Assembly: GCA_905331295.1 (NCBI GenBank)
Contig: CAJNYD010000281.1
Coordinates: 1-64,000, forward strand
Reading direction: 5' to 3'
From: Rotaria socialis
Lineage: Eukaryota
DNA: 64,000 nt
Shown: positions 22,571 through 48,439 of the stretch, one piece after another
How the letters are laid out: the number at the start of each line of letters is the position of its first letter
Numbering within the stretch: the first letter of the stretch is position 1
Made by a program: the position numbers and the translations under genes
Notes under the pieces: model-generated
What the model was told of the DNA's origin: nothing
What the model saw: only the letters and a program-made list of their open reading frames with translations
Databases searched by the model: none

Positions 22571-22592
22571 TGAGGGTGAGGGTGAGGGTGAG
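22571..22592 (+). repeat. Telomeric repeats (TGAGGG)3.7 at the 3' end of the giant terminon
   Basis: TGAGGGTGAGGGTGAGGGTGAG directly followed by the pLTR. Confidence 0.88.
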
Positions 22593-22968: not shown

Positions 22969-24056
22969 TTATGGTTCATTTTTTGAGGCCATTTTCAGAA
23001 TTTGTTCAGCGCGTCGTTCGATGTTCTGTATTCTTGTTTGAATAATTTGTTTGATATTGGTTTCGTTTGTTTTTGTTGTGTTTGTTGCAAATTCTATGTT
23101 TTCGGTTATATGATCAGTTTGAATATCGTACGAAATGATATTATATTCAGATTTGATTTTAATGGTGTCCGTTTGATAGGATGGTTTTGTTTGTAGAGTT
23201 GATTGTGGTTTTTTTTCGAACGTAAAGTTTGATTGTAACCATGGTTTAAGGGTGAATGTAATCTTTCGTTTATTGTAACGGCTATGTTTGCGCCAAATCT
23301 GTTGAGCAAAACATTTCTAAAATGATAATTTTCAGGATTTATTATCGATGAAATATTTTGTATTCTTATACTTACTTGTTGTTCGTTTGGGTTCAAACTA
23401 TAAAATTGTTTGACCAGTTCAACTTCTCTTATATCGAATGGTAAAATCGACTTTTTGTTGTCGAAAAATTGTTTCGATTTCTTGAGATCATGGTCGATGA
23501 GTGTACTTATAGCAATATCCATCGTATCAACTGAGAAGTTGATAATATATTCCTTTGCTATTCCATAATAATGATTTTTTTCTTCTAAGTGCTTGTTCAA
23601 TCTATATTCTGCTTCTCGTATTTTATTATTGATCAGTTGTTGTCGATGTTGTAAATTTCGTTGACTTCGAGGATAATCCCAATTAATCGAATTATGTTTT
23701 GTTATATTTTTCGGCATCTCTGATAACCATTGTATAGCAGGTGTTACCATTTGAATAAGATGTTGCCAATAATCTTGTTCAATCTGTAATTGTGATAAAT
23801 GAAATTTCAAAATTGTATGCTCTCGTATAAAATTAAATAAAGCACGATTTGATAGCCAATGTCGAATTTTTTGATGATCACTTGGTATAGCATTCGATAA
23901 TTGACGAATGAATACATGTGCCGGTAATTTCCTATAATTTGGTAGATTTTTCGATGATGATACTTTCCATTTGTCTACAGTTAATTGATTCTTCTTTCTA
24001 ACAAGTCCATTATTTGTTTTAGCAGGTAAATTATGTTCGATCATTTTTAGTTCCAT
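22969..24056 (-). CDS. Terminon coiled-coil protein, 2 exons
   Basis: Exons 24056-23376 and 23316-22969; FYSLNPNEQQ| intron and C-terminal IQTRIQNIERR parallel the gene at 25760-27113. Confidence 0.7.
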
Positions 24057-24368
24057 TGATTTTGATTCTTGTTTATAATTTATTTCAAATTGAAAATAAT
24101 ATAAACGATAAGATTGTATTTTATATCGAAATGATTTATTTGTATATCTAAAATGGAGAATACATTGACTTTCTTTTTATTTTTATTTATAATGAAAATG
24201 AATTTAATTCTAATTTTTCTCTAATATTAACTTTCTACGTTTTTTTTTCTTTACAATACAATGCAAGATGTAAGAATGAATATAAGATAAACTACAACGA
24301 TTAACATTCTAAATAATAGTTTCAATTGTTTTTAAGACAATTACAATCATAAGAATTTTTGAAATGAA

Positions 24369-24982
24369 TCAAAATGCATTACGATAATTTTGATATGTTC
24401 TTTTATACAACTTTTCAAGTGTTTTTGTTCGATTTGTTTGTGGAATATAACGTCGTGGTCGATTTGTCATACGATCATGTACAAACACTTTGTCGAATGA
24501 TCTATTTTTGAATGCTTCGAATAGTTGCAGACCATGTTCACCGCTATGTACACATACTTCAGTAATATAATTCCAAAATGCCTGATGATCTCGTAGATAT
24601 TGAGAAATGAGTGTTGCTTCAAATGCTTTTGCTTTATCATAATTGATGGAATGAAAATCTTCACCAAGTAACCATAAAAGATTGGCTGATAATGATAATT
24701 TATACGGCCATTGATTTCTTCGTTCGGTGTTACATCTTTGACATTGACACTTATCATCGTCAATACTAGAATAAATAATAAAAAAAGTTGAAGAAGAAGA
24801 AGAAGAAGAAGAAGAAGAAGAAGAAGAAGGTGAATTAATTCAGTTAGTACAATCATTTTATTATACCTATATTTTAATTTTTGAAATGGATATCCAATTT
24901 CATTTCGTCGTTTTGAGAGCCCATTCGACGAGTCTTCTTTAATAAAACATGTATAATGTTTCACAAGAATAAGTTTAACCAT
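24369..24982 (-). CDS. Hypothetical ~170-aa protein with CxCxxC motif, 2 exons (not in the ORF track)
   Basis: Exons 24982-24867 and 24765-24369 in frame: MVKLILVKHYTC...KYS|IDDDKCQCQRCNTERRNQWPY...NYRNAF*; the intron contains a (CTT)n tract. Confidence 0.65.
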
Positions 24983-25759
24983 TTCAATAATTTCGAAATT
25001 GAAGTTGATAGAATGATCTATAGAATTGTTTGAATTTGTTACAGAATAATATCTAAAATAGAACATATCTTCATTTTTCATAATGAATACGTATACGTTT
25101 GTAGAATAAATTATGATTTAAGTAAAAGATTAATTTATAAAGTAAAAGTAAATGAAGGAAAAAAAAGTGATAGTAAATTATAGAATTAAAATAATAAAAA
25201 CATATTGAAATAGATGAATCTAAAATTGTATTTAATTCAAATACACAAAAAAAATTCATTGATTAAAAACAAATCCATGTATGATTTGAACATTCATTGC
25301 TTGAAATAGAAGAAGAAGTTGAAGAATAGAAATTCATACATTCAATTGACATAAGATATATTTGTATATGATCTATAGAAATTTGAAAGAAAAAAACAAA
25401 ACAACCCATGTTTGAAAATATTCAGAAAAAATAGTTTATAATTACTTGTATCATTTTTCAAAGAAATGTACGATGATAGTTCCATCTATCAAATTGTCAT
25501 TGTAAAGATACCAAAATAAGAAGATGTTCCATCAAAGAAATGATACTATGATCTAGAATGAACTAACAAATATCCTAATGTAGTCGTTAAGACGTAAATA
25601 ATAAATCAAGGCACAAATATATAGAAAAAGTGTCACACAAAATGAAAAATTAGTTTCAATAACAAATGGAAAACAAAAAAGAAGAAAAATTCAAAAATTC
25701 AAATGTCTATGATGTTGATGGTTCATTATATCTTCTATCCATTTTTGTTTTATTTTTCA

Positions 25760-27113
25760 TTATTCTGGAAATATTATTTTTATCGTTTGTTCTGTATGAT
25801 ATCGAATACATTCAATCATGTTTTGTTGACGATTTCCAATAGCTTCTAGAACATTTTCGACGGTTGGTAATTTCTTAAATTTATGTTTTTGATTTAAGAT
25901 TTTTGTTTTTTCGACATTGGCTGCTTCATTATAGATTTGAATGTTTTTCTCAATCAAGAGAATAGTTTCGTTCATGGATTCAGACACCAATTCTTTTAGT
26001 AACATTGTATCAATATGTGTTGTTGATAAAGTATTAAATAATACTTTATTTGTAAGAATAAGTGTAAAAAGTTCATTGATCTTAGTTAAACCTAATTTCA
26101 TCATGGTATGTAATGTCATTGATATAGTAGGTAAAGACATCCATTTTTTGAAAATAGTAAGTTCATATTGTAATGATTGTTCGTATTGAGTAGCCTTCCA
26201 GATGACTTTAGCCGACAAAATCTAGAGTAAATCAAAAGAAAACACTAGTAGTATCATATCGAATTCATAAGAAACTATTGACAGATAAACACAAACGAAC
26301 CTCAGTTTGTCTTGGATTCAATTCATAGAATGCATTCACAAATTCATGATCTTGAGCATCCATTTTTAGCATTTGACGTTGTCGTTCAAATTCTATTCGT
26401 AATCGATATTGATCTCGTTGAATAAAATTATAAATAATGTTGTCAAGCTCTTGTATATCAATGGATATGGGTGCTTGTTTTTTAAATTCTTCAAGTTGAT
26501 ATTGACAATCGAGAATTTTCTTTCGAAAATAAATTTGACGTCGTTGAATTAATGCTTTTGTACGACCATAACTAACACACATTGAATTGACTAAAGCCAT
26601 TTTCTTTGAAACACGTCCATGCCAAATACCTTCTTTCATGCCAAGTTGATGATAATACATCCATTGATCATATTGTAAATTTAAATAATTTAATTTATTG
26701 ATAGATTGAGTCAATTGTCGACTAAATATGAATATCTCATCATTATTAAATAATTCAATGTAACGTTTTCGATCATTTTCATTTGATAATGAATCCAAGA
26801 TTTTTTCTTTAAATATTTCATTGGATACATGTGAATAATCATTTATAGTTAAAGTTGGATCTTTATTTGATCGAATATGAGATTGATTGTCATTTTTCTT
26901 GAATAAACATGATTCAAACATAGAAAATGTTTGAGTGTCATTCATATGTTTCTTTAATAGTAAAGGTTGATAAAGACTATTTCCAAAAGATCTTATACGA
27001 TGATAGAATTTATGTGGTTTCTTTTTTAAATATTTTGTTCTCTTACACGGTTGATTCCCATTACAATTGTTATTCATATCAGTCGATTGTTGTTCATTAA
27101 TATTCGAATTCAT
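25760..27113 (-). CDS. Terminon coiled-coil protein, 2 exons
   Basis: Exons 27113-26301 and 26221-25760; basic N-terminus, FYELNPRQTE| intron, helical Q/E/K-rich content. Confidence 0.8.
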
Positions 27114-27348
27114 GATTATGTAGAAGATGCCTTTTTTTATCTATAATAATCTAAAACAACATAGAAGAGAAATAAGCATTAGATAAAAAAAAAGACATTG
27201 AATAATTCAATGAAATCCTAAATAGAACAATAATTGAAAAAAAGAAAAATTTAATTGTTATTGTTATTGTTAATATTTTTTGTTTTTCTTTTCATTGATT
27301 TTAAATTTTCTTTGACATTCATCAATACATTTTGTTCAATGATCATTA

Positions 27349-30300
27349 CTAGGCTGTTGTTGTGGTTGATTCAGTCAATTTTTGTTCTAAATTGTTTTTG
27401 AAAATAACAAAACAAAAATATACATTAGTCAGAAGATTTTTATTTTTTGAATACACTCACTCTTTTGAAATGGTTGATTTTTCAATAATGATGATGATGG
27501 ACGTTTTCTTGTTAATTCAAATTCAATATTTGGATTATTTCGATGACCAACAATTAATCGAATATCTTGATAAATCGTATTGTTGAAGAAACTATCATGA
27601 ATTTCATGTATTTGTCGTTGCATATTTCGAAATCGACCTTCATATAGAGAATGAATAAAGATTTTCTTGTGAAATTTATTATCTTTATCATTTGTTGTTT
27701 CTCCATCATTTTTAATACATTGATCTTTAATAATATGATCGACAGTAGCTACACTTTTATCAAATAGAATTTGTTTAAGTGAAGGTTGTGTTAATAATTT
27801 TTTTCGTAAAATAACAAATTGTTCTTCATTATCAATGAATGGTAGAATCGAAGAAAATGTCGGTAAATATTTGAGAAAAAATTGTTGAAATTGTGTATTA
27901 ATATAGACTGATGGATAACTAAAATAATTTTAAAGAAAAATAAAAAGAATATTATTACATTAAGTTCATTATAGAATTCGACCGAAATGAAATATGACTT
28001 ACTCATTATATAATAAAGTTGAACGTAATTCTACGTCGTTCAATATTAAATGCTTCAAATGTTGACGAATATCGTATTGCTCTCATGAGTGCTGTTTGAA
28101 TAACATTACGAAATACATGTCGTGGATGATCAGAAAGAAATGATAAAATAGTTGGTTCAGCCGCTGGTTTATGATACACAGATGAATACAATGTAGCATT
28201 TCGATTTTCAATGAGAACATCAAGAAAAGGTAAACATTGACCGATTGTATAAGTTAATTTAATATTTGGATGAAATTGATTTGCAAAATCTAACCATTCT
28301 TTAATTGTTGTTTCTGATTCATTGGATGTAAAAATGACATCATCAATATATCTATAAATAGAAAAATAAAATTCTTTAAAATAAAATCAAAAAAAATGAT
28401 AATACTGACCGGCCGTACAATTCATGAGAGGGTAATTTTGAAAGAATAGTTTGACGTTCCCATTTCCACATGAAAATATTTGCCAAGGTTAATGTAAAGG
28501 GTGAACCCATAGCACCACCAATAATTTGTCGATAGAATTTTCCATCATAAACAAAAACATTTTCTTTCAATACGAGACGAGCTAATTCAATGATTGTTTC
28601 AATGGATACGCCATCAATTTGCTGACAACCATGTTCACGAAGAAATTCAGCAAGAATTTCAAGTGATTCTTCTTGTGGTAACATTGTATAGAGATTAGTA
28701 ATATCAAATGTAACAAATAATGTTGACGACTTGAAATAACCATTTTTTATATAGACATCAAGTCGATGAAAAAGATCAACACCATCAACGATCGTCGTTG
28801 AACGAACATATCGATCAAATAATGGACGAAGTGATTGATCTAAAAATTTTGATATTTGTGTTGTTGCTGCATGTATTGTATTGATGATAGGTCGAAGTGG
28901 TGTTCCTTCCTTATGTGATTTAGGTAGAAAATACATATAAGCTAATTCAGTTTTATTTTGAATTGGAATTAATTTTGATTTTTGTCGTTCTCTAATTCTA
29001 TTTTGAGAACGTAATTGATTCAATAAATTCGTAACACGATGAAAGATATCATTCAATGGATTTGTTGATAGTTCTTCATAGGCACCTGTTGTTGTTCGAT
29101 ATAAATAAGCCTTCCGTTCATAATCACGCAGATGGCCAATATGAAATACACCACTTTTATCTGTTTGACGAAGAATAAGTTTATGTTTTTTTAATTTTCG
29201 TCGAATTGATTTAATCAATTTTAATTCTCGTCGAGCACGTAATTGATTCATCAATGGTAGTGGTTTCATATATTCAAGAGTAAGACATGTTCGTAGACGA
29301 TCTTCATATGATTTATACATTGTTGTAGTCTTGGGTATTGATGGATAGCCATCTCTTGTTGCATTGACTAAAGTATTTTTTATTTTATTTAACATCTCAT
29401 CGATCTCCTTTTTTATTTGTTTATCACGTTGTTTTATTGGTCGTAGTGTACTTTGATTTGGCCGTATATAACTTGGACCTAAAAATAAAACACAATCATA
29501 TAGATAAATAAATAAAATAGAGAACATTTTTTTTTCTAAAATATTCTACTAAACCTCTTGAAAGATATTTTAATTCATTTGTTGTAAATGGATGTCGTCG
29601 AAGATCAAGAATGACATGTGGAGAAACTTGAACTTGTTTAAGAAATTTTCTTTTTCGTTTCAAACGTTGTCGTTGATGTCGAAGTTTTTTTTGAAATATT
29701 GGTATTTGTTCATAATATATGATTTGTTTTAATCTATCGATTCGATAATTCATATAACGATGAAAACCTTCTAATAGAATACTTTCATTGTTAGATAGAT
29801 TATTCTTTGATACAAATTCTTTGAAAAGTTGTTGATATTCATTTTCACGTTGTTGATATTGAATTTCATAGGAATGTAAATAAATATTTAAAAAATGACG
29901 TTTTGTTTCTTGTATTAATTTAAATCGTTTTTGTTGATATTCAATAGAAAGAAAATCGCGAAGATGTGTTCGATATTGAATCGATCTAAAGATATTTTCA
30001 ATACGATTCAATTGTCTAGGTAAACATTCCATTGATACACGTGTTTCTAATCGAAGATAATTTTCAAAGATTTCCAATTGTCGTTCTCGTATAAAGATCA
30101 ATTGATCAATCGTAGATTTCTATCAATGAGAAAACAAAACAAATAAATAACAATTCATTGAATATAAAACAAAATCTAAATAGAATTTACTTGTTCATCA
30201 GTATGAATATGAGATAATAATGATTTATATAATTCATTTTCATGAATATAATTTTTATATCTAGTCAATTGAGCATTTAATTTTTCGGTAAAACGTGTTC

Positions 30301-31120
30301 GTTGTAGTCGAACGAATTCTTTGAGCTTTTGATTAAGTATATCGAAGGGTCCCAATTTAATCGGACATAATTCAGCTTGTTTCTTTAATTCATTGATACA
30401 TTCACGATATTCTTTTTCAAGTTTATTTAAACGTTGTTCAATATATTGTACACTCAATTCATTATTCGTTGATTTTATTTTCTTCTGTATACACATCTAG
30501 AAAGAAGAAAATACTATATATATATATATTGAGAATAGTATTCAACTTACAGGCCAAAACTTAGATAGAGAACCAAGAGTTAAATAAGTTTGCCATAAAA
30601 ATCGATATTGACCAAGACGATATTGTTGATCGAGTAAAGGTAGTCGTTGATAGATAAATTGTTGATGTTTCTTATTTGTTAGTTTTTGTTGTAAATGTAA
30701 ACGAACACTTTGCATAAGTATATTGGGTTCCTTTTTTAAATACATTGGAAGTCGTCTATTGAATTTCGTCGATGCCACTTTCAATTTTTTACATTTCTTT
30801 ATTTTCTTCTTCAATTTTCGTTTAGTCGTCGATGTCTTTCTTGTCACATTCTTCGATTGACGTAGTACAATATCATTTGTTTCTTTCATTTGAATATCAT
30901 TTTCTTCTCGTCGTGGTGGTTGTTGCTGTTGTTGACGATCTTGAATTAATCGTTGAATTTCTTCATCATTCATACCTCGTTGACGACATTTCTTTTTAAA
31001 GCGTCGTAATTTACGATTACCGTGACATCGTCGACGATGTAGTTTTGTTCGTTGAATTGTATTTTGTTGTTGTCGTCGTTGATTATTGATCTTGTTGATG
31101 TTAACAGTCGTGGATCCCAT
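27349..31120 (-). CDS. Athena-type RT (YIDD) with N-terminal basic/CC region, 7 exons; one +1 frameshift at ~28027
   Basis: Exons 31120-30551, 30496-30191, 30119-29555, 29478-28410, 28351-28003, 27918-27461, 27386-27349. Motifs: RRRCHGNRK, QTDKSG, FLPKSHK, FDITNLYT, GGAMGSPFT, YGR|YIDD, YHKP. Confidence 0.88.
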
Positions 31121-31313
31121 AATGGTTTTGATAGTTTGTTTATCAAAAATAAAGATTGACGTTCATCTAGAATGGATCTAAAATGAAAACATAACACGTA
31201 CGTATGCCATCTACGAAATAAATCGAATGAAAAGTTACTACAATCTAGTTTAGAAATATTCAAATAAACATGTATTTTCTAAGAGAAGAAAAAAACGAAA
31301 TATTCTATTGAAT

Positions 31314-32765
31314 TTAATGATTATTCTTTTTTTCGTTCGATTTCCAACGAAAACATTCAATCTTATATTTATAAATCGATTGAATACGTTCACCTATCAT
31401 TCGACAACGTTCAGTGATTAAATCGATCATTTTCAACGGTAATATTGTATCATCAAGTGCATTATGATGAATATCATATAGTTTCTCCTTTTGATTATCA
31501 TAGTTTAATTCAGCTCGAGTTCGTTGATCTTCAGCTGTTTTTAAAATTAATGTACAAAAATCAGCTTTGGCTTGTTGGATCAATTCTCGAGATTGTTTTT
31601 GTAACAATTGTCGTATTTCAACATTTTCAATAGAATCAATCATTGTTGAATCAATAAGTGCTAAATCTTTGAAACATTGATCAGATACATTGAAATGATG
31701 CATTCGTTCTTGAAGAAATTTCAGTTCTTGTTCAGTTGTTTCTTTTTCATCTTTTTTCAAACATAATTGTTTCATGAGTTTTTTCTAGAAACAGACAAAA
31801 AAAATATATGAATAGATAACTTCATTATTATCAAAAATACATACTTGATATTCAGTTGCATTTTGACGATCAAATTCTCGTTTAATAGCTTCGATATGAT
31901 AATCAATGGTAACTAATTCTATTTTATGTTCGATTTCTTTTTGAAATTCATATACATTTCGAAGAATATAATCTTTTAATAATTGTTCAACTTTTAAACT
32001 GTAACCAGAGATATGATTGACTTTTTTATTCCATTCAATTTCTGTTTGTCGTAATTGTTTTTGAAGTTCTTGTCGGTGAACAGAAACTATATCCATTGAA
32101 CTTTGATTCATATCTGCAGATTGTTCATCCATTGATTTTAATAATCGTTGAATTTCTTTAGGCCAAATACTAATATTCATCGCATAGATAATATAAGTTT
32201 GTCTTTCAGATGTTGGTTTAATCAATTGACCAACACCTGACTCCCAATAACTTGTCCATAATAAATGATACATGGATAGAATTTGTATTTGATAGAGAAG
32301 AATACTGACGTCTTGTAAATCATTTTGTATCTTATCATTCGTCATAGATACATTCATCATACGCAATGCTTGATCAATAATGGATTGAAATGTTTTATTT
32401 TCTTTGGTTAGATAAGTTGGAATTTTCTCTAAACGTTCTTGAATCTTTTTATCGATCAATATAGATGAATTCTGAATTCTTTTTGTTGTTGTTGGAATCA
32501 CTGATGTTGTTAATTCAGTCATTTTTTGTGATAATATTCTTTCTTGTACGTTCTAGAAAATAATAATTTTCAAAAAAGAATCATTCTTTTTCTTTTTCAT
32601 ATTTACCTCGATCATGGTTGAATATAATGGACCTTGACGAGAAGACAAGTTAGGATCATTCTAAAAGAAAGAATATGTATTCATATAAATGTATGAATAA
32701 TTTTGTTTTACTTGTCTTCCATTGACTTTATCTTGATTATTATCAATGAATAAATAGTCAGCCAT
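31314..32765 (-). CDS. Terminon coiled-coil protein (homolog of 4606-5929), 4 exons
   Basis: Exons 32765-32712, 32660-32607, 32552-31845, 31784-31314; IPTYL, SGVGQL, ISIWP motifs and TEYQ| intron. Confidence 0.8.
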
Positions 32766-33147
32766 GTTGAATAAGTTGAATTGAAATGAATTATCTAAAA
32801 CAGAAGAACAAGTCATTGAAATAACTCATTATCTAATTATGAATTGAAAACAATGACAAGTAGAGTAAACACAATGAAAAACAAAACAAGAAAGAAGAAA
32901 TTGCTAATCATAAATGAATTGTCTTCTAAAACTACTAAACATACATATATGAAAAAGAAAAGAACAGTACATATCAATCTAATCAACATCTAAATGGTTA
33001 AACAAAAATTAAAGAACAAAAAAATGAAGGTTACAAATAAATAATACTATCTCAATGATAATATTATTTTTATCGAACATTAGTTAGATGAATTTTCGTT
33101 GAAATAAGATTCTTCATGATTGAAAAAACAATTTTCAAATCGATGTT

Positions 33148-35681: not shown

Positions 35682-35714
<33 letters not shown>

Positions 35715-35920: not shown

Positions 35921-36222
35921 GATTAAGAATTATGAACTTTAAAAAGCAATCTAAAACGAGTAAAAACAAAAAAAGTTTTATAAATATGAATTCAAAGAAA
36001 ACAAAAAAAAAGAACTAGATTCTAAATGCTAGATGAAGAGAAATTTTCTCATAAACAAAAAATCAAAAAGAAAGTTATTTTGTTTTCATTGATTTCGATG
36101 TTTTCAGAACAGATATCTTTTTCTTGTTTGCACATGATTGAAGTAGTTGGACAATTTTTCTTATTTTCATTTGATTTTCTTTTATCATTTTCAATTGTAA
36201 TTGTAATGCTATGAAACGTAAA

Positions 36223-36867
36223 TCAAAGAAATGTAAAATCTTCTTTCTTTTGTTTTTTTATTCTTACTTTGTTTCCGTTGACGAATATGATAATTCGTAC
36301 TAGGTATTTTCTAAAAAAAAAAGAAATCCACATAAATAGATATATCTGTAGACATATATGAATAGGATATATATTCACTCGTTGTTTCATTTGAATTCTT
36401 TCAAGTTGTTCATATTTTTTTAATTGTTCTAAAACTAGATCATAGTCACGTTGTTGTTCATTACGTTCATATTCTTTTAATGTTTCAATATGTTGTAATT
36501 GTTTTGTTTTTATTTCGTCCATATCGAATAGAGATGGTTGATGATCATTGATTTTTAATTCTAAATCAAGTGTTTGTTCCAATCGATTATATTGTTCTTG
36601 TTCTTGTTGTTCTAATTCTTGAAGTTGTCGATCGAGATCAGCTTCCATAATTTCATCGAAATTAATCGGTTGATATTGACATTGAGATTGTTGTTGTTGT
36701 TGTCGATGTTTTTCTTTTTGTAATTGATGCCATCGTGTTAACATTGTTTCAATTTGTTCATGATATGATTTTACAGATGGTCGAGCATTTGTAGTTATCC
36801 TTGGTATATTATTATTATTATTATTATTATAACGATGATCAATCTTAAAGAAATTATTTTCTTGCAT
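36223..36867 (-). CDS. Q/E-rich coiled-coil protein; 3' exon structure uncertain
   Basis: ATG directly after a ttctag acceptor; heptad-like Q/E/L content; probable intron from ~36378. Confidence 0.6.
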   Translation of the reverse strand: MQENNFFKIDHRYNNNNNNNIPRITTNARPSVKSYHEQIETMLTRWHQLQKEKHRQQQQQSQCQYQPINFDEIMEADLDRQLQELEQQEQEQYNRLEQTLDLELKINDHQPSLFDMDEIKTKQLQHIETLKEYERNEQQRDYDLVLEQLKKYEQLERIQMKQRVNIYPIHICLQIYLFMWISFFFRKYLVRIIIFVNGNKVRIKKQKKEDFTFL

Positions 36868-36957
36868 CTAGAACAGAAAAAGAAACAAAACAAAACAATG
36901 ATGTCTATGATAAGAACTACAACTACAACTACAACTACAACTACAAATAATGAAAAG

Positions 36958-39900
36958 TTATTGTTTATTTAATATTGCATGTATTGGTCGTTGTTGACTT
37001 AGAAGTGCATTTAATGAATATTGAGATTTGGTTGTAATATCAAATTTTAATTTGGTGCTTTCGAATTTAAGATTATGTAATTGAATATTGTCCACTAATA
37101 TTTGACGTAATTTTTTATTGAATTCACCTTTTCGACTTATATTATCATAGATATAAGATAGAGGAAAACGACGATACTTCTTTAATGCATCTTGTTTTTT
37201 TTCCATGTATTGTCGTTGTTCATACATAAAATTAAATAGACGACGACGAAATTTTTCATAGCCATGTTGATCTAAATGTAATTGTTGAATTGCTTTTCCA
37301 TCAAAATATTTAAAAAAATGTTTCAAATGTTTTTCCACAAATTCCCATGAATAACCATTAGCTAAATAGGTCATTTCAAGATAGATACGTTCTTGATGGA
37401 AATCTTCAATCGTTGTACAATAACGAACAGCACGTATAAGACTTGATCGTAACCAATGACTATGTGTTCTTATTGCATTTCCATTTGATACATATGGTAA
37501 TGTATATGTTGGTTGATGTTGAATACGACTATAGAGTGAACCATGACGATTTTCTAAATAAATATCAAGATAGGTTAGTTTATCTTGAACTTGTATATGA
37601 AAATCTAAATAATCTTTGTATTTCGAAGTCATCGATTGTAAAATTTTATCTAGTTCATCCATTGAATGATTCCATGTAAAAAAGATTTGATTTTGATATC
37701 GTCCATAGAATTCATTGTGCATTGAATTTTGTTCAATTAAACATTGTTCCATTCGACTAAGATAAATATTCGATAATGTTTCAATCAGACCTGAACTTGC
37801 TGGACCACCTTTTCGATATCGATAAATTTTACCATCATAATAAAATCGATTATTATGTAGAAATAGACTTATCAATTGAATCACTTTTGTTACTTGTATA
37901 TTTTCAATACATGGTAAATGATAACATTGAAGGAAAAAATCTGTTAATGTATTCAACATATGATCATGTGAAACCATATGATAAAAATTGCCAATGGTAA
38001 TCGTGACAAATTTTGTTTTCGAAGAAAGACGATGAGTACGATCAATGTATTCATGAAATTTTCGTAAGAAATCTGAACCATTGGAAAACATTCGTCCTTG
38101 TCGATGTATATTGATGACAGTTCGTAAGATGGAATCAATAAATTGTCCTAAACGATAAGTAGCACTTTGTTTTGTGACCATCACCATAGGTTTAACATCC
38201 AATGTAGTTTGTTTCCATAGATCTGGTAGAAAATATAAATAAGGTAATTCTACTTTACCAATGAGAACAGTAATTCTATTCAATTGATCTTTATATTTTT
38301 TTGTATCCATAAATATTGTTTTAAATTCACGATTCATTGATTTAATTTTTCCTTGTAAATAATCTTGTGTTTCTTGAACATTGTCATTATTAATCTCCAT
38401 TTCTAATTCAAATCGATCTGTTTCTAACATAAATTCATTGCATAATTTTTCAAATAATATTCGATCACCTAAATAGAAAACATTTCTTCGATTAGCTGTA
38501 CGTCTTAAAATTAAATTAAATGATTTTAAATCATTTCGTATCTTGTCAATAAGTTGTTGTTCATAATATGCACGTTCCAACATGGCCTTGGATATCATTG
38601 TTGTTGTTGTTGTTTTCGAAAACATTTTCATATAAAGATCTTTGACTTGTTTTTGTAGAATGATTGTTTGAACTAAATTTACATCAGATTTTACCAATAG
38701 TTTATTTAAATCATGCTGTAATGGTTTATAATTTTTTTCTAAATTCTCTTCGATCAGTTGTTGATACGGTGATACATAAGTTGGTCCACGTGATAACAAT
38801 TGTAAATGTTCTTTATTTAAATCATGCATGGATGCATGTACAATGATCGTTGGTAAAAAACTAATTTTAGCTAAATTAAAATCATCGGATTGTTGACCAA
38901 AATGTTGTCGTAAATAATAATTTAAATGAAATTCTTGTATACCATGATATTTTTCTTCCGCTAATCTATAACGATGTTGTATAATAGTCATCAATGAATC
39001 TGATGTTAATATTGATGAAGCCAATTTTTCTTGTTCTTGATAAGAACGTTGACATTCATATAATTTTTTTTCCGCATCTACAATTGCTTTGGTCATACAT
39101 TCATTAAAATATTTTTGTAATTGTTTATTTTCGTAGTCAATATCTTGATGAAAAAATTCTGGATTTGATGTCAACGTCATCAGTAGCATTGATGAAGCTT
39201 GTGTTACACTTGTTTGTGTTGGTTGATTACATTGAACACGATGTTTCAATTCAATGAATTCATATTTTGTTTGTATGTATTCATTGTATGCTTTATATAG
39301 ATTTGTAGCCATTTCAATCTTTAAAAAAAAAAGAATATGTAGAGAACAAAAAAAGAAAAAAGAAAATATCTACTTGTTGTTCAGTTGGTTGAAGAGAAAG
39401 AAATTCACGTTCTAATAATTGATCTTGATAATCATATTCAAATTGTGCCAAATAATAATCGGATTTCATTCTTGATGGCAGTAGACGATATGTTTCAATA
39501 AATTCATTAAGTTTATCTTCAATGATATCTGTCATCCATTGACGACCATCTTCTTTCAATGTATTCTTTTGTTGTTGTAATTCTTCTAATTTTTGATTTA
39601 TTTTATTGATATATTTTTCAACATAGATTGCATATTGTTTTTCATTGATTTCTTTCATAGTAAATAGTTTCTTTACTTCATTCGACCAGATCTGTTGTTG
39701 AACACCTGCTTCACGATATCGTGTCCAACGTTTTAAATGAAGTTGAGCTACACCAATGCCATGTTGACAATGAATAAAATTTTTTAAATTATTGGGTAGT
39801 GGTCTTCCATTATCATGAAACATTGTACGATGAAACATGTCATCCATTGTTTCTAAATAACTTGTAATTTGATTTGTTTGTTCTGGATGTTGTACATCTA

Positions 39901-40315
39901 TATCTGTTGGTGGTAAACAAATCTTTTTCTTGGGATTTTCTTCTTGACTCGTTGATGGTGTACTCAATGGACGTTTATGACCTTCTGTTGATAATTGACT
40001 TAATTTTTGTGATAACATTTGTTCTTGATCCTGTTGTTGTTGTTGATCACCATGCATTTTATCTAGAATTATAGATGGTTGTTGTTCTTCTTCTTCTTCT
40101 TCTGTGTCTTCTTGATCAGAATAAAAATCTAAATCTTCATAATAATCTTCCATGATCATACGTTCAATTTCTTGTCGATCATCATCCATATCATCATCGA
40201 TGGTAACAATATCAAAGATATCATCAAACCAATCGATATTGTTAAACTTAAATAAAAAGAATATTAAATTAGAAAAAACAAAGTTATTTTAACATACTCT
40301 TGGTAAATTTTCCAT
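36958..40315 (-). CDS. Catalytically inactive Athena RT paralog with N-terminal CC region, 3 exons, ~1083 aa
   Basis: Exons 40315-40298, 40246-39374, 39318-36958. LLSRGPTYV, LRRTAN, LYFLP, VKPMV, NGYS retained; motif A reads VTITIGNFY and motif C YGRYQNQIFF (no Asp). Confidence 0.85.
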
Positions 40316-40438
40316 AATTATAATTGAATGAAATATCTACAATAGAAGAAAAAAAAAACAAGAAAGAATGACTAACAACAATTAATAATGAACGTTTTCT
40401 AAAGAAAGATAGATAGATCAACATAGTTTTTGTTTTAT

Positions 40439-42023
40439 TTAAATCATGGGACGAACTAAATTTTCATAACATAATTCTTCATTGTCTGATATTGGCATTG
40501 TTGAATATTCAATATCTAAATGACCAAATGTATTTAATTTTGTTTGAGCTTGTGTGATAAAAAGAGCTTCAATCACTCGTCGTAATGTACTTGATGTATG
40601 TTTTGGTACTAAATAAAATGAAATAAAATAAAATGAGAGATGGTTAAAATAAACAATAAATACACATTGTCTACTTACATACGGCAATGATTTTAGCTTC
40701 ATATAAATCTAAATGAAAGTTAGGTGTATGAAGATATTTTTTTTCTTGAAAAAATTTTTCAATATCAAGTTTTTGTTCAACAGTAAGATGATAATTCATA
40801 TTGGTTGGTAGTGGTACATCATTAGCAAATTGATATTGATTTGTATCGACAACTGGTAATTCTCGTTCTTGTTGTTGTTCGTCAGAGTCTGTCATTCGTT
40901 GAGGAATAAATGGCCAATATTCAGGATTTTCATCCAAGAAATATTGCATTGCTACTGAACAATGACATGAATGTTGATATAATTGCATACCATCTTTAAC
41001 CAATGTCCTACACATGAATAAACATAGAAATAGAGATAGACAATATTCTTTATTTTTAAGAATAACAACTTACTCAAATGATTTTATTTCACCATGATTG
41101 ATATAATTTGTTAATTTTTTTCCTAAAAGAAATTCTTTGATGATACGATTTCCATGTTTTCGATGATCTAAATATCAACAAACAAAAAATAGATATATAG
41201 AAAAAAGTGAAATTTATCTTAGAAAATTACAAGTAAGACGATGTGGTAATGATAAACTTGTTTCACCAATATAATCAAATTGCTGACATGGACATGTTAA
41301 AACATAGATCGTATTTTGTGTTGTACATGCTGCTGGACAATTTAAAATTGAACGAAAACCATTGACAAAAATATGTTGAATGGTCGATTGAGATTCTCTA
41401 TGTCGTTGTAATAATGATGGTGGTTTTTGTTTTAATCGATGAAACGGATAACATAAACAACAAGATTGTTGTTGACATGCATCCATTGTATAATGGCCAT
41501 AGGGTGGTCGTTCATTTGTTAAAAATATATTTTTGGGTTCATTTTCAATTGATTGACTATCTTGATAGGAACATGTTTTCATATAGAATAGTTCATGATC
41601 CATTTGTAGATAGAATTCCAATGCCACTTTATATTCTTCTAGAGATAGATATTCATGTTGTGCATTTGTTGAAAAATGATACATTCGTCGATGTGCCAAT
41701 CGATCGACTAATGTTAATAGTTTTCTAAAATTAAATTCTAATACATCTCGATGAATATTCCAAGATTGACTAAGAGTTGTCATCCATTGATGATGATCAT
41801 GTTGAGATGTCGTTATCATCGTCGTCTTATAATAACCATAACGTTGACGTTGTTCTAATTGTTTTTCATTGAGTTCCCTTGCTAGAGAAAAAAAAAAGAA
41901 AGGTATCATTATCGATAGAAATCATTTTTTTATTCTCTTACTTGGTACATTGGTTAATAATAGATCATTCGATGATGGATAACATGGTAGAATTGAATCC
42001 ATTGAATCTTGTTCATCTATCAT
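40439..42023 (-). CDS. Stand-alone GIY-YIG endonuclease with Cys-rich N-terminal region, multi-exon, apparently intact
   Basis: CTTQNTIYVLTCPCQQFDYIGETSLSLPHRLT|YHRKHG, LYQH, TLRRVIEALFITQAQTKLNT: Tyr, YIG, Arg, Glu and Asn of Penelope-type GIY-YIG present. Confidence 0.87.
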
Positions 42024-42068
42024 TCTATATATATAATCTACAATAGAAATAGAAATTTAAGATAATAT

Positions 42069-44984
42069 TTATCGAGTTAAAAGATGATTTAATGAAAATA
42101 AATGTTTAACAGTCAGATTTATTTTTGTTTGTTTCGATGATAATTGTGTATGTGAATTTGTATAGGTTGACCAAATACCAAAGAATTTCTTTTTAAATTC
42201 ATGATAAGGTCCATAATCATAGAAATAAAAAAATTCTATGACGGTAGAATTTTGACATCGTTGAAATTTGAAGAGTCGTGAACGAAGTTGTTTATACATG
42301 AATTCGTTTGTTTGAAGTTCATAGATATTGACATTGAAATAACTATTAAATTTTTCTAATTCATTTTCAATAAATTCATTGGAATAACCTGATATTAAAT
42401 AAATTATTTCCATATTGATTCGTTCACGAGTAAAATCTTGATAATTGGAACATACATGTATGAGGCGTATTAATGTTGAACGAAACCATTGTTGATATTG
42501 AACTTTTGGATAATTTGTTACATAGGGTAATATTAATGATGATGTATTCATTTTTGTATGCAATTGTCCATGACGATTTTCTATATGAATATGCTTAATA
42601 TTGATCTTCATACCAAATTCAATATTCATTTCAATCGTATCACCATAGAATTCTTTCAAGTTCTTAAGAAATACATGAAGATGTTCTTTGGATTGATTCC
42701 ATGTAAATAATAGTTCATCTGTATATTGAAGAAGAAATTCATTTTGAAATTGTTGATTATCATTGAACATTTTTTTTCGCCAATAATATAAACATAAAGT
42801 AGATAATAAACGATTGAGATGTGTATGATTAGGCATACCACGATTGAAACTATAAATATGATCTTGATAAATAAATAATGTATGTTGTAAATATAATTCA
42901 ATTAAACTTTCAATAACATTCACCGATAAACCATTGATCAACTGACTTTGACAATGATTTGCCAAAACATGAACGATTCGATTGACATTCGATTGATATG
43001 AAAACATGTTAAAAAAATTTTGAATTTTAATTCTTACTAATAATGTTGTTGATTTCAATTTTGAAGAAGAAGAAGAACAACATTGAATAAAATTAAAATC
43101 ATCATTGACAATAGATTGTTGTTTGAATAGATCTTCAATAGTGGATCGAAGTAAATCATCAAGATAGATAGATAATTTCCATGTTAAATTAGATTTCATT
43201 GAAACCATTGGTTTAATCAATGTTCCATCGAATAGAAACTGAATAGGTTTCAATTGAATATCATCATAGTGAAGAAAAAGTTGTTGATGAATATCTTTAG
43301 TAATAGAATGGCCATGTTCTAAACAATTGAATATTTTATTCATCTTTGATATTCGTTGTTTAGTTTCAATATCCATTTTTGTTCGATGACATAAGCGTTC
43401 ATAATCTTCTTCATGTTCATTCATATAATGTTGACATTGTTCATCATAATGTTTTTCATCAGTAAGACAGAATTGATTTCTATCATCGATTGTTCTTCTT
43501 AAAATAAGTTTATTTTTATGAAGACATTTTCTTATAGTTCCAATAATTTTTTGTTCATGAAATGATCGTTCTAATATTGTTGATGATATAGTTCGATTCG
43601 ATGTAGAAAATAATCGATTGAATTCTTCTTTTGTTTTTTGTTCAATGATATTGAATAATTTTTTATCTTTGGGATATTTTTCAACAAGATCTACTAATAA
43701 TTGTTGTCGTAATGGTTGATATTGTTGTTCATGAAGAAGTTGATCTGATAATTTCAATTGTAATTGACAGGGTGCTACATAACATGGACCACGACGTAAT
43801 AATTGTAATTGTTTTCTTGAAAAATAATTTTTTTTCATACTATTTTTATCTATTTGTAAATTATTGATAAAACCAATATGAGTTCGATCATGACATTGAT
43901 TACATAGATAATACTTGGTATGAAAATCTAATTTTAATTTCATTTCTTCATGTATTAATTCAATACGTTGATGAATTATAGACAATAATGGTTCGTCAAC
44001 TTTTATTTCATTTGTTTGAGATTTTAATTTTGTTTCATATTGAAAGATATTTATTTGTAAACATAGCAGACGTACGGCCATTAATTTTGTTTTTGTTTGT
44101 TGTAATAATTTTTCAAATACATCCATGGGTAGTAAATTATAATCTAATGTATCATAAGATATGGGTGGACGATCATAAAGTATTTGTAATCGATGATAGA
44201 TCAATTCATATTTCATTGTTAATAATTTAAAATTTGTTTCAAAGAATTGTTTTCCAATATCAATCTATGTTCAATGTAACAATTCAAATTATTTTATTTA
44301 GAATTCTCAATTTTAACTTACTTGATATTGTGTTGAAGTTTTTCTCTCATATTGAACTTGTAGTTGATGATCATGATATTTATTATATAATAATGCAATT
44401 TTATATTCAGATTCCATATGAATTTCAATTAAACCATAGTCATTGACTAATTTTTCAATTTGATTTTGTGTATTGGTATCTAATTTATATGAAGCATATT
44501 CTTGTTGATAATGATCCAATTTAATTTTATAATCATGAAGTTGTTGACGAATGCAAGTTTCATTGTAAAACCAAAATGGTTCTTCTTGTTGAAGAGAAAT
44601 TAATTGACCCTGACCCGCTTGTAAATAAAGTGACCATAAATGATAATAATGTTGATAACGTCCAATTTCATAAAGAACTTGAGCTACATGTCGACGATCT
44701 TGTTCATTCATTGAACAATGTAATTTTAATAATTCCATTTGTAAATAGGTTGGTATTGAATCATCATCATCATTATTCAAATGGGTCATTGACAATTGAC
44801 TTAATTGTTGTGATACATCTTCTTGTTCTTCTTCTCCTTGAATTTGAAAATCTTTTACTTCGTCATCGATCACATTGATATATGGACTAAAATAATCATG
44901 TTCTAATTCAATAGGATTCATTATTTCACCAAAGGAATCACCATCGATGACATCGAATGTTGAATTGACTAAATATTTCTCCAT
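42069..44984 (-). CDS. Second catalytically inactive Athena RT paralog, 2 exons, ~952 aa
   Basis: Exons 44984-44322 and 44264-42069. LLRRGPCYV, LILRRT, IKPMV, RGMP, LPYV, SGYS; motif A VRIKIQNFF, motif C LQYTDELLFTW. Confidence 0.85.
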
Positions 44985-45049
44985 ATAATCTAGAATGAAA
45001 TAACTATCCTAAGAGAAATATAACAACAACAAAAAGAAAAAAAAAGAAT

Positions 45050-46080
45050 TTATTTTTCATAATAATAACAATAAATAGCATGTACTTTAAGTATCATCAT
45101 ACAAAAACGATGATCAATTAAATTTAATGTCGCAACAGACAATTGTTCATTTGCAGGTAATGAATGTTGATGTTTCCAAAATAAAGCCATATCAGAATTA
45201 AATAAATTTTCTAAATTTGAACAAATGTCTTCTGACATAACAATCAATAATTGAAGTAGTCGATGTTTATAATCATGAAGTATTTCACAATGTTGATCCA
45301 TCAATTGTTGTCGAATACGATGTTCAGTCATCGTTTGAATAAATGATGGTATATCAACATGTAAATAACGAAATGAAGATGGCCATCGATTTTCTTTTTG
45401 ATAGTTATACAATTGTTGAATTTCTTCTTTCCATAATTGTAATTCATATTTTCGTTGTACAAGTCGTTCAATCATTTCTATCTATAATAAAGCAAACACG
45501 AAAAGATATACTATAGATGATAAAAACAAAATATTACTTGATTTGAATTATCAGTTTGTTGTTGTCGAATTTCATTTGCTAATCGTTCATCATTGTCATC
45601 ATAATCATAATCAAACAAACGGAAATGATCTTCAATATATTTTTCTAACATATTTTCAATGATTGTTTCATGTGATAAGATTTGTTCAATTACAGGTTTA
45701 TGTAAATATATTCGAACCACATCGGAATACATTTCATCTGTTAAATATTCAATGGATTGATGACGAACAACATTCATTGAGAGAATCACTTGTTTTAACA
45801 AGGTGGGCCATCGATGGAAACCATGTTCGATTGTTTTCAATAATGTTGACCAAAGTTGTTTTTCATGTAGACGTTTTCGTTCTTCATACATCGTCATTGC
45901 TAATTGTTGTAATTCTTCAATGGATATAGTTGTTGTTGAAACTGAAGAAAAAATTTTATGAAATAATTCTTGAAATTGTTCATTTGTCAACTGTAACCAT
46001 ATTGGAATATCCTTCTGTACTTTTTCGTTGTCCCTAGATGATCGATTCATTGTCAACAATGATATGTTTTCATAGTTCAT
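45050..46080 (-). CDS. Terminon coiled-coil protein, 2 exons
   Basis: Exons 46080-45538 and 45481-45050; IPIWL, RWP and C-terminal LPANEQLS..TLNLIDHR match the other CC genes. Confidence 0.78.
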
Positions 46081-46181
46081 CTTAATCTAGAAAACAAAAA
46101 AAAAACAAATAATAGAACAAGCAACTAAGATAGAAGAAAAACAAAAAACAAAAACGAAAAGACGAGAAGAATTCAATTAAT

Positions 46182-46433
46182 CTAAACAAAATCTGAACTA
46201 TGTTTTTTTGAATAAAACATAGTATAATCCTGTTCGTTGGCCAAAGGTCCACGTGAATTTTCTTGATTCGTCGCCGTTGATGGATAATGTTTTCGAGCAG
46301 AACAGAATATTCTTTTTATAATAACAAATACTATCACCATGAATAGAATAACGAAGAATAGACATATCATGAGAGTTGATTCATTTTGTTGTTGTAATAA
46401 TGGTTGAACATTTTCACCGATCGATGGTTCCAT
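46182..46433 (-). CDS. Small single-pass TM protein (83 aa), copy A1
   Basis: Short N-terminus, TM LMICLFFVILFMVIVFVII, then KRIFCSARKH; paralog at 46798-47049. Confidence 0.75.
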   Translation of the reverse strand: MEPSIGENVQPLLQQQNESTLMICLFFVILFMVIVFVIIKRIFCSARKHYPSTATNQENSRGPLANEQDYTMFYSKKHSSDFV

Positions 46434-46510
46434 GATTATCTGAAACTAGACAAATGGAAACTATACTAAGGGAAACAAAAACAAAAACAAAAAAAAAACA
46501 ACGGAAGATT

Positions 46511-46726
46511 TTATTTTGATTTATTTTGATGCATATTAGAGATTTGAATACTACAATGATGACAAGGAAGAGAATAACGAAGACGTAGAGTTTGTTCGTT
46601 GACTTCAAATACGTCCACGATGATCGACAGTGTAAGTTTCATCAACGCCATCAAACATAAACAAGCCAAAATAATGATCACACCTGTAGATGTATTCATA
46701 TTGAGATCGATCGTCGGAAACACCAT
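46511..46726 (-). CDS. Small TM protein with CxxC (71 aa), copy B1
   Basis: TM VIIILACLCLMALMKLTLSII, PCHHC; paralog at 47120-47338. Confidence 0.7.
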   Translation of the reverse strand: MVFPTIDLNMNTSTGVIIILACLCLMALMKLTLSIIVDVFEVNEQTLRLRYSLPCHHCSIQISNMHQNKSK

Positions 46727-46797
46727 TATGATTATCTAAAAAACAAAAGAGACAATCCATGAAACAAAAACGAAAAGAAGAGAAAAATTCAATGAAT

Positions 46798-47049
46798 CTA
46801 AATAAAATCTGAAATATGTTTTTTTAAATAAAACATCGTATGATCCTTTTCGTTGGCCAAAGGTCCAAGTGAATTTTCTTGATTTGTCGTCGATGATGGA
46901 TGTTGTTTTCGAGCAGAACAGAATACTTTTTTCATTATAACGAATAATATCACCATGAATAAAATAATGAAGAATATATATATCATGAGTGTTGATTCTT
47001 GTTGTTGTTGTAAAAATGGTTGAACATATTCAGTCATCCATGGTTCCAT
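46798..47049 (-). CDS. Small single-pass TM protein (83 aa), copy A2
   Basis: Same length and frame as A1, with substitutions. Confidence 0.75.
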   Translation of the reverse strand: MEPWMTEYVQPFLQQQQESTLMIYIFFIILFMVILFVIMKKVFCSARKQHPSSTTNQENSLGPLANEKDHTMFYLKKHISDFI

Positions 47050-47119
47050 GATTATCTGAAACGAGACAAATGGAAACTATACTAAGGGAAACAAAAACAA
47101 AAAAGAAAAACAGAAGATT

Positions 47120-47338
47120 TTATTTTGGTTTATTTTTATTCATATTATACATTTCAAGAATACAATGAGGACAAGGAACAGAAGTACGAAGACGTTGCGT
47201 TTTTTCATTGATTTTAAAGAGATCCACGAAGATCGACAGTGTAAGTTTCATTAAGGCCATCAAACATAAACAAGCCATAACAATGATCACAACTGTAGCT
47301 GTATTCATATTGAGATCGATCATCGGAAACCACATCAT
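47120..47338 (-). CDS. Small TM protein with CxxC (72 aa), copy B2
   Basis: Paralog of B1; PCPHC. Confidence 0.7.
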   Translation of the reverse strand: MMWFPMIDLNMNTATVVIIVMACLCLMALMKLTLSIFVDLFKINEKTQRLRTSVPCPHCILEMYNMNKNKPK

Positions 47339-47391
47339 GATTATCTAAAACAAAACAAAAAAAAAAGAGAAAGATAATGAAGATGAACAAA

Positions 47392-47739
47392 TCATATAAA
47401 ATTTTCATTGAAGAAGAAAGTTGATTTCTTATATCGTCGATAGTAGACTGAAATGCATATCAAACAAAATGAAATAATTATAAATAAAATAAAAAGTAAA
47501 ATAAAATCTTGAACGATTGAAGGTGATTTGAGAAAAAGAAGAAAAGGTCGTTCAATCATATTTGTAATGTTGAGATGAGAAATTTTCGATTGATTGGTAA
47601 ATAGAGGAGAATCTCGTACCGATATCAATGGATTATTGTAATGAGTTTGATGATGATTTTGTGTGAAATCATTGTTGACTCGAACCGATGAAAATGGAGC
47701 ACTGAGAATCCGTTCGTTGGTTCGCATTTCTGCATTCAT
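47392..47739 (-). CDS. Small membrane protein with C-terminal TM and basic tail (115 aa)
   Basis: FILLFILFIIISFCLICISVYY followed by RRYKK. Confidence 0.65.
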   Translation of the reverse strand: MNAEMRTNERILSAPFSSVRVNNDFTQNHHQTHYNNPLISVRDSPLFTNQSKISHLNITNMIERPFLLFLKSPSIVQDFILLFILFIIISFCLICISVYYRRYKKSTFFFNENFI

Positions 47740-47890
47740 GATTGATGAAGAAGATGAAAAAATAAAATCTACAATGAAAAGACAAAAACAAACAAAGATT
47801 GGAAAACAACTACGAATTCAACTAAAGGGTAAAATGAAAAGGATAATGTTTATTTTATTTTTTTTAAATGAACTTCACTCATCGATATCA

Positions 47891-48401
47891 TCAACGTGGT
47901 TTCGGCATGAGTAATTTAGTAGTACCAGCTTGACATGAACAATAAAGAAAAGCAATCAAAGACATAATGATAGTTATACAAATGAGATAGAGCGGCCTAG
48001 AAATAAACAAAAGAAAACAAAAACAATAGTATGAAAATGAAAGAAATTATTTTTTTTTCTTCAACATACCAATTATTCACGATATTGGTTAACCAATTGA
48101 CTGGCAACAATGCAAGATCAGTACCACCTTGCATAAGACGACTACCTTGACTTTTAGCCATGGACAACCATGCATATTTTGCTTTATTGCTTTCAGCATC
48201 GTTTACATTATCATTAACAATAACTGAACTTCCAATGTTTCCTGACGCATCATGTTTCTTGATATCACTAAAGAAATTGAATATACCTCGACGAAATCTA
48301 TGTCGTTGCGGTTGTTGATCATCCACTGGAATTGTTTGAATGAGTGGTAGGATGATGAGAATAAAAGTAAATAAAAATGAAGAGTTGAACAAGAACATCA
48401 T
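47891..48401 (-). CDS. Type I membrane protein: signal peptide, furin-type site, C-terminal TM; 2 exons, ~145 aa
   Basis: Exons 48401-48070 and 47996-47891; MMFLFNSSFLFTFILIILPLIQT signal, RHRFRR/GIFNFF, W|PLYLICITIIMSLIAFLYCSC. Confidence 0.75.
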
Positions 48402-48439
48402 GTTGAACTAAAATGTAAAAAGATAAAAATGATGAATTT

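Follow-up and report, generated by a model that had tools for sequence, protein, structure and literature searches.

Unpaired acceptor-like sites precede the downstream genes of a Rotaria socialis Terminon, an array that host spliced-leader trans-splicing may resolve

The minus strand of the 64,000-nucleotide stretch of Rotaria socialis DNA analysed in this study (the window) carries an element spanning positions 48401-22574, about 26 kb, for which sequence models predict 18 genes (G1 to G18) with 29 cis-introns (Table 1). All 18 genes are co-oriented, with 80% coding sequence over 25.4 kb, and the accessory ORFs include coiled-coil, transmembrane (TM), and GIY-YIG-like products, the last (G9) recognised by motif inspection only. 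Nothing useful was found in comparisons of the accessory ORFs with Pfam and PDB, and the main exon of G9 matched neither. A plus-strand gene lies near 48888. Judged by its sequence, the element is a bdelloid Terminon with an Athena-type reverse transcriptase (RT). The RT encoded by G15 has at least 280 matches at E<=1e-10 (best identity 69%), its relatives carry RT Pfam domains, and all the species-named ones among the matches listed (120 of 280) are bdelloid proteins, the label Athena resting on the host, the architecture, and the absence of a fused endonuclease. A search of viral contigs gave no RT relative. A hammerhead-like fold and telomeric repeats mark the 3' end of the element. The Rfam search gave no match to the fold at 22600-22675, and the sole hammerhead that it returned is that of the neighbouring unit (21441-21486, E 0.027, below the gathering score). 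Similar termini are found near 22590, 21120, 20590, and 6080, in a head-to-tail chain with telomeric-repeat junctions.

These characteristics are shared with Terminons and Athena endonuclease-deficient Penelope-like elements (PLEs) as described in the accessible parts of the literature (PMC6431247, PMC5408684, PMC5537684, PMC8557442), including a size of tens of kb, an Athena RT, introns, many co-oriented ORFs with coiled-coil, TM, and GIY-YIG-like members, a 3' hammerhead with (TCACCC)n, and a head-to-tail chain. DEDDy, GDSL, and Rep ORFs, a point of difference from described Terminons, were not recognised in this element. No mechanism for the expression of the many ORFs was found in the accessible parts of the same sources.

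Table 1. Features of the Terminon and of a neighbouring element. Positions are those of the window; for G10, G14, G17, and G18, the start given is that of the gene models made in this analysis. A slash in a motif marks the splice junction.
Feature	Positions	Strand	ATG	Acceptor ends at	Description
TATAAAA box	48458-48464	-			Predicted promoter of the array, about 60 nt above the G1 ATG; flank GC 0.39
G1	47891-48401	-	48401	no YAG/AT upstream	145 aa, 1 intron; N-terminus resembling a signal peptide, RFRR motif, TM at the C-terminus; P0121, a Rotaria socialis record, is identical to the spliced model
G2	47392-47770	-	47739	47769 (unpaired)	115 aa, TM
G3-G6	46182-47346	-	47338, 47049, 46726, 46433	47345, 47056, 46736, 46440	Four small TM ORFs
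G7	45050-46088	-	46080	46087	324 aa, 1 intron
G8	42069-44991	-	44984	44990	952 aa, coiled-coil and degenerate RT-like domain; blastp 1e-71 to G10, 6e-25 to G15
G9	40439-42039	-	42023	42038	441 aa, 4 introns
G10	36958-40338	-	40315	40337	1083 aa, coiled-coil and degenerate RT-like domain; first exon of 6 codons
G11	36075-36869	-	36867 (ag/ATG)	36868	About 221 aa, coiled-coil-like
G12	35465-35952	-	35920	35951	151 aa, TM
G13	33148-35235	-	35196	35234	557 aa, 6 introns; paralog of G9 (E 5e-48)
G14	31314-32796	-	32765	32795 (weak)	428 aa, coiled-coil-like, 3 introns
G15	27349-31168	-	31120	31167, then a 7-codon uORF	Athena-type RT, YIDD motif, 6 introns; frameshifted in this copy near 28030
G16	25760-27152	-	27113	27151	424 aa, 1 intron
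G17	24369-25054	-	24982 (uncertain)	25053 (acceptor-like YAG/AT)	170 aa, 1 intron
G18	22969-24149	-	24056	24148, 91 nt above ATG	342 aa; paralog of G16
Hammerhead-like three-way fold, variant core	22600-22675	-			3'-terminal; three stems, z -2.16, core read by eye
(TCACCC)3	22574-22591	-			Reverse-complement telomeric repeats at the element 3' end; fits the description in the accessible part of PMC6431247
Second element, RT gene start	4425-4456	-			5'-truncated element; YAG/AT acceptor 29 nt above ATG, no donor

An earlier note on this DNA had listed 16 gene starts, each with a 3' splice acceptor a short distance upstream. Direct inspection of the sequence confirmed all 16 as minus-strand ATGs with an AG upstream, and with a matrix trained on the 38 cis-intron acceptors of the same window (threshold score >=3) an acceptor-like site was found within 46 nt of the ATG in 15 of the 16 genes, the exception being 32765 (G14; best score 0.2). 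When the same 75 nt were dinucleotide-shuffled, the mean was 5.9/16, and none of 1000 shuffles reached 15 (p<0.001), while the control ATGs passed in 3/509 cases within exons, 16/657 on the opposite strand, and 28/224 in four non-coding stretches. Some particulars of the list had to be revised. The motif ag/ATAATCATG does recur, but owing to the tandem duplication of a two-gene unit of ~610 bp (G3/G4 = G5/G6), so that it represents two independent sites and not four; dN/dS is about 1 between these duplicates, small ORFs that show no sign of purifying selection. The start at 48401 (G1) has a strong AG upstream (score 9.2), but this site is not of the AG/AT form and sits below the TATA box, only about 26 nt below the presumed transcription start. 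The tracts preceding the acceptors are U-rich, although no more so than those of ordinary introns (0.60 vs 0.58, p=0.23), and the idea that spacer acceptors have a longer U-tract was rejected.

Three further genes absent from the list were also found to have YAG/AT upstream, at 46 nt from the ATG for 31120, 35 and 70 nt for 24982, and 91 nt for 24056. The form thus occurs within 100 nt of the ATG in 17/17 downstream genes and in 0/1 for G1. True cis-introns have it in 14/38 cases, and the top-scoring site is AG/AT in 14/17 downstream genes compared with 14/38 cis acceptors (Fisher p=0.003), or in 13/15 once the duplicated pair is left out. In relatives, indels alter the stretch between AG and ATG, including a 2-nt insertion at G9 and a 30-nt deletion at G13 that leaves 7 nt; because its length changes in this way, the stretch behaves as UTR. 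Three host-like genes in the window (58218, 57109, and 56489) have AG/AT at 19, 0, and 0 nt, with scores of -4.8, -4.4, and 2.9 and possible donors.

An acceptor scoring >=3 was found in all 17 intergenic spacers and a donor in only 2, so that the spacer acceptors are considered unpaired, a status that describes sequence scores and not use in RNA. Only 2 of the 44 donor-like sites scoring >=2 fall in spacers, and within 45-110 nt above the 17 acceptors the best donor score was <=0.6, compared with 1-7.6 for most true introns. The use of these AGs by ordinary 5'-UTR cis-introns, the outcome that the earlier note had set against its own proposal, fails because no donors are present at the acceptors. 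An intron joining G7 to G8 from a possible donor in the 3' end of G7 was judged unlikely: the best donor within 110 nt scores 0.5, and the N-terminal region of G8 itself resembles G10 and G14.

TATA-like matches are common in this AT-rich DNA. Nevertheless, apart from the box at the head of the array, a TATA motif above the acceptor is absent from 16 of the 17 spacers, a TATA-like motif lying just above the G18 acceptor. Many spacers had been described as only ~50-150 bp long, and 11/17 are indeed at most 155 nt (median of all, 123 nt), but the full range is 45-777 nt, with 45-101 nt before eight genes (G3-G9 and G11) and 193-777 nt in the six before G13-G18. These six could have room for promoters, and internal promoters are possible there. 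AATAAA was found near 7/17 stops, a modest enrichment over the 2.6-2.7 expected (p=0.003 and 0.011); either hexamer (AATAAA or ATTAAA) is present at 9/17 stops, and neither at 8/17 junctions. The median distance from stop to acceptor is 102 nt, the gap in C. elegans operons being c. 100 bp in the accessible part of PMC7986045.

G14 is transcribed and spliced: an RNA-derived contig (run X7, records 21 and 22) has lost its intron at 31844-31785. The RNA comparison covered the element up to its 3' third (G16-G18), and among the eight matches listed, the RNA-like run X7 contained genuine pieces for G14 only. For 39000-48900 no RNA match was listed; neither this nor the missing coverage elsewhere bears on expression. 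None of its six listed loose ends matches the spliced leader (SL), and the RNA contigs found stop short of the 5' end. Bdelloids trans-splice over 50% of transcripts (PMC1925144). Two of five SL matches examined (L003 and L005) were discarded as bacterial chance matches, given their internal position and bacterial ORFs, although both are also followed by AT; the remaining three, SL-capped eukaryotic mRNA contigs from bdelloid-like sources, all start with AT (3/3), a sample that differs from the cis rate of 14/38 only at p=0.05. Chance SL matches in viral contigs are followed by AT in 1/22 cases, with an unbiased H position. None of the five corresponds to a Terminon gene. No match to the SL was found in the window at up to 3 mismatches; therefore, the RT template seems not to be trans-spliced.

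The reading that we favour, with moderate confidence, is that the 17 downstream genes, each behind an unpaired YAG/AT, form one or a few operons that the host SL would resolve into single-gene mRNAs. Transcription by RNA polymerase II would start below the TATA box (48464) and continue through the array, and we infer that each acceptor would receive the 23-nt capped exon of the host SL RNA. Where a poly(A) signal is present about 60-100 nt ahead of the acceptor, the upstream cistron would be cut there, and cis-introns would be removed last. A separate, unprocessed RNA, starting further upstream and ending in the hammerhead and a C-rich tail, would serve as the RT template. The SL trans-splicing already suggested in the earlier note agrees with the unpaired acceptors, the AT start common to SL-capped host mRNAs, the operon-sized spacers, the poly(A) signals, and the presence of a TATA box at the head only, but no read or contig was seen that joins the SL to a Terminon gene or that spans two genes as RNA. 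SL-resolved operons, both those of nematodes (SL2) and those of Ciona and Oikopleura (with a single SL), as presented in the accessible part of PMC7986045, likewise have co-oriented genes ~100 nt apart, a donorless acceptor before each downstream gene, and, matched here in part, poly(A) signals in the gap. However, those operons consist of host genes, usually few per operon, whereas 18 genes of a mobile element with putative SL use are found here, and a Terminon must also keep full-length unprocessed RNA. In the spliced ORF3/env messages of LTR retrotransposons (accessible part of PMC5408684), an unprocessed template is similarly balanced against spliced downstream-ORF messages, but through a cis donor in their own leader, and none was found for the Terminon array.

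It is unlikely that each gene or small group has instead its own TATA-less promoter, located in the upstream gene or the spacer, with the SL added to a short outron and no long operon. This would explain the same unpaired YAG/AT acceptors, SL addition is the majority state in bdelloids (PMC1925144, PMC4824033), and both the 193-777 nt spacers before G13-G18 and the TATA-like motif above the G18 acceptor fit it. However, the 45-101 nt before G3-G9 and G11 offer no room for a promoter plus outron outside coding DNA, and the other 16 spacers lack a TATA motif above the acceptor. A hybrid arrangement with a few internal promoters agrees with both the operon and the own-promoter readings.

A common leader exon encoded by the element and cis-spliced to alternative acceptors, which the earlier note had entertained, is quite improbable. 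Precedents exist in the adenovirus late unit and in retroviral subgenomic RNAs, which have a cis donor in their own leader. Surplus acceptors and interspersed poly(A) sites would be expected from such a leader too; moreover, a TATA box, a short exon, and a strong donor (7.4 at 6888) are found above the second element, a G1-G2 fusion protein is annotated in other bdelloids (P0122 cluster), and the terminal repeat of Penelope contains a 5'-UTR intron (accessible part of PMC8557442). Nevertheless, the stretch from the TATA box to the G1 ATG has no good donor, the only upstream donors scoring >=4 are about 5 kb off, and G1 exon 1, whose 5' donor is the sole strong one close to the head, gives in-frame products at 0/17 acceptors. 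The AT start common to SL mRNAs is not predicted either, and P0122, which extends beyond the G1 donor position, looks like a gene-prediction fusion. Finally, that the sites are by-products of U-rich 3' UTRs and an AT-rich translation-start context, or belong to ordinary 5'-UTR cis-introns, is very hard to credit, for although the spacers are U-rich and 28/224 non-coding ATGs also pass the score, composition-keeping shuffles give 5.9/16 and not 15, and the donors are missing.

Operon processing had also been put forward to explain intron retention, for which it does not suffice alone. Retention is general to PLEs, Drosophila's included, according to the accessible part of PMC8557442, and insects are reported to be without SL trans-splicing (PMC4824033); thus, SL processing is no general explanation. 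If the TATA region at 48464 is part of the mobile unit, the template would start upstream of the TATA box, and it would therefore be distinct from the mRNA precursor. As a tentative extension of the SL-resolved operon, Terminons might be mobile operons, in which a single promoter serves ~18 genes across 25 kb and the RNA is cut into mRNAs by the host SL, which would explain both the growth of retroelements to 40 kb by added ORFs in bdelloids and the survival of their introns. Any transcript entering splicing would be chopped at 17 acceptors and lose its hammerhead-telomere tail, so that only untouched RNA could be copied.

The unpaired-acceptor pattern appears to be a new point for Terminons; no description was found in the searchable literature, the two founding Athena/Terminon papers aside. 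Since scanning ribosomes read only the first ORF, the expression of well over a dozen co-oriented ORFs in a eukaryotic retroelement is an open problem, to which this locus offers a concrete and cheaply testable answer, since 17 junction coordinates are predicted and the 23-nt leader, being known, can serve as a PCR primer. The unpaired YAG/AT provides a sequence signature by which bdelloid gene starts and operons could be annotated. If the proposal is true, the size limit of mobile elements would be tied to a host RNA-processing system, and new ORFs could be added as cassettes of an acceptor plus an ORF; the mobile-operon reading, if true, would in addition be evidence for operons in rotifers.

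The array is an AT-rich Terminon (80% coding) of 18 co-oriented genes interrupted by 29 GT-AG introns of 51-101 nt. The spliced model of its first gene, G1, exactly matched a protein recorded from Rotaria socialis, and the reverse transcriptase (RT) gene, G15, had 280 relatives at E≤1e-10, every species-named one among the 120 listed being a bdelloid protein. The 3' end contains a hammerhead-like three-way junction fold followed by (TCACCC)3, and the available text of PMC6431247 (section 8) describes Terminons in terms that fit both this end and the array architecture. Degenerate RT-like domains were found in G8 and G10, G9/G13 and G16/G18 are paralog pairs, and G3-G6 represent a duplication. 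Because G15 is frameshifted near 28030 (-) relative to the RT of the second, 5'-truncated element, this copy may have lost its activity or have been wrongly assembled.

Coordinates of the element's features and of its surroundings
Feature	Position	Strand	Remarks
Terminon array	48401-22574	-	
TATAAAA box	48464	-	upstream of G1
G1	47891-48401	-	signal-peptide-like start, RFRR furin-type motif then hydrophobic stretch, C-terminal TM; presumably resembles a miniature envelope-type precursor; homologs in three bdelloid species, G1-G2 order preserved
RT-like paralogs	42069-44984, 36958-40315	-	YxDD catalytic pair absent (YTDE and YQNQ instead; main RT, YIDD)
Upstream ORF, 7 codons	31146-31166	-	directly after the RT gene's acceptor; could damp RT translation
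Termini resembling the element's 3' end	near 21120, 20590, 6080		
Hammerhead-like cores	17900-18340, 100-180	-	CTGATGA...GAAA type, by eye; Rfam reports neither
Tandem array	8800-13100		diverged ~180-bp repeat, >20 copies
TATA-exon-donor unit	7014-6080	-	short non-coding exon between a TATA box and a strong donor (6888), possible acceptor around 6503, hammerhead-like repeats next; possibly a terminal promoter for the following, 5'-truncated unit of the chain
Divergent gene	48888-49515	+	intron-containing, ~420 nt from TATA box; suggests a bidirectional promoter
Acidic 102-aa ORF	50184-49876	-	converges on the divergent gene; in public annotations
Three co-oriented genes	55980-58218	-	outside the element; gaps 225-240 nt; two begin ag/ATG; possibly a host operon
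hAT transposase gene	61668-63763	-	Pfam PF05699, E 2e-6

The earlier note had proposed that a splice acceptor precedes nearly every gene start, and this was borne out. Indeed, all 16 ATGs it named were present, and 15 had a site scoring at least 3 within 46 nt, using an acceptor matrix trained on 38 cis acceptors, of which this element contributed 29 and the second element 9. Composition-preserving shuffles gave a mean of 5.9 of 16, none of 1000 reaching 15, and such acceptors preceded 3 of 509 exonic and 28 of 224 non-coding control ATGs. An ATG-blind scan detected 65 sites scoring at least 3 in the array: 25 intron acceptors, 30 distributed over all 17 spacers, 6 in exons (20.4 kb), 3 internal to introns and 1 above G1.

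Adding to that observation, a YAG/AT signature lies within 100 nt of the ATG in all 17 downstream genes (within 46 nt in 16), and G1 has none. At 14 of these 17 genes the top-scoring site reads AG/AT, a form that 14 of the 38 cis acceptors share (p=0.003 for the difference); the count is 13 of 15 genes when one duplicated pair of G3-G6 is left out. Scanning metagenome contigs with the rotifer spliced leader (SL; Table 1 in the available part of PMC3795323) returned five matches. Three were eukaryotic mRNA-like contigs that carry the SL at their extreme 5' end and read AT directly after it, p=0.05 against the cis acceptor rate in this small sample (n=3); judged from sequence, two of them encode Rab GTPases, and the third is unnamed. 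The other two were bacterial chance matches, also followed by AT, and chance matches in viral contigs were followed by AT in 1 of 22 cases. Small as the sample is, it points to AG/AT as a bdelloid trans-splice acceptor preference.

In the range expected of an intron, 45-110 nt above each of the 17 acceptors, the best donor score was at most 0.6, most true introns scoring 1-7.6 (a list that is not leave-one-out), and spacers hold 2 of the 44 donor-like sites scoring at least 2, both in long spacers. Thus, the acceptors lack partner donors, and ordinary 5'-UTR introns do not explain them. Among 40 of 1132 difference rows, relatives about 95% alike carried a 2-nt insertion (sequence set X1) and a 30-nt deletion (X1 and X3) between AG and ATG of G9 and G13, respectively; these stretches thus behave as UTR.

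We consider it probable that the array forms a single operon or a few, which the host SL resolves. According to the available text of PMC1925144 and PMC4824033, bdelloids place their SL on >50% and 60% of transcripts, respectively. Spacers have a median length of 123 nt, and from stop to acceptor the median is 102 nt, which resembles the c. 100 bp given for C. elegans operons in the available part of PMC7986045. AATAAA occurred within -25/+40 of the stop at 7 of 17 junctions (2.6-2.7 expected), and 8 of 17 had neither common poly(A) hexamer. G14 is transcribed and spliced, since a contig of the RNA-like set X7 matched it with one difference and exactly lacked the predicted intron 31844-31785; X7 pieces of this gene stop at 32461, short of its 5' end. 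That separate promoters produce outrons to which the SL is added is unlikely; a TATA-like motif above the acceptor occurred only in the G18 spacer among 17. Taking these two readings together, SL use at the 17 acceptors is likely. Alternative splicing from a shared cis leader, also raised earlier, is improbable: a TATA-exon-donor unit exists above the second element, but here the donor is absent and in-frame fusions from G1 exon 1 numbered 0 of 17.

The element itself adds a new member to a known kind; what is novel is its expression architecture. Our literature search found no paper describing trans-splicing or polycistronic expression of Athena, Penelope-like or Terminon elements (the founding papers and supplements, outside its scope, may already mention SL addition), nor any retrotransposon with SL trans-spliced subgenomic RNAs. 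The available text of PMC8557442 does not address polycistronic Terminon expression, and "trans-splic" had no match in PMC5408684, PMC6431247 or PMC7943196.

Messenger RNAs cleaved at poly(A) sites would lose the 3' hammerhead tail and would not be copyable, and if the region of the TATA box is mobile with the element, whose 5' boundary was not found, the template would have to start upstream of the box. Unspliced or antisense templates are already discussed in the available part of PMC3846280. An unprocessed template beside trans-spliced mRNAs had been offered as the explanation of intron retention. Trans-splicing is not required for retention, which is general to Penelope-like elements and called unexplained in the available text of PMC8557442. 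Trans-splicing may, nevertheless, reinforce intron retention in this element.
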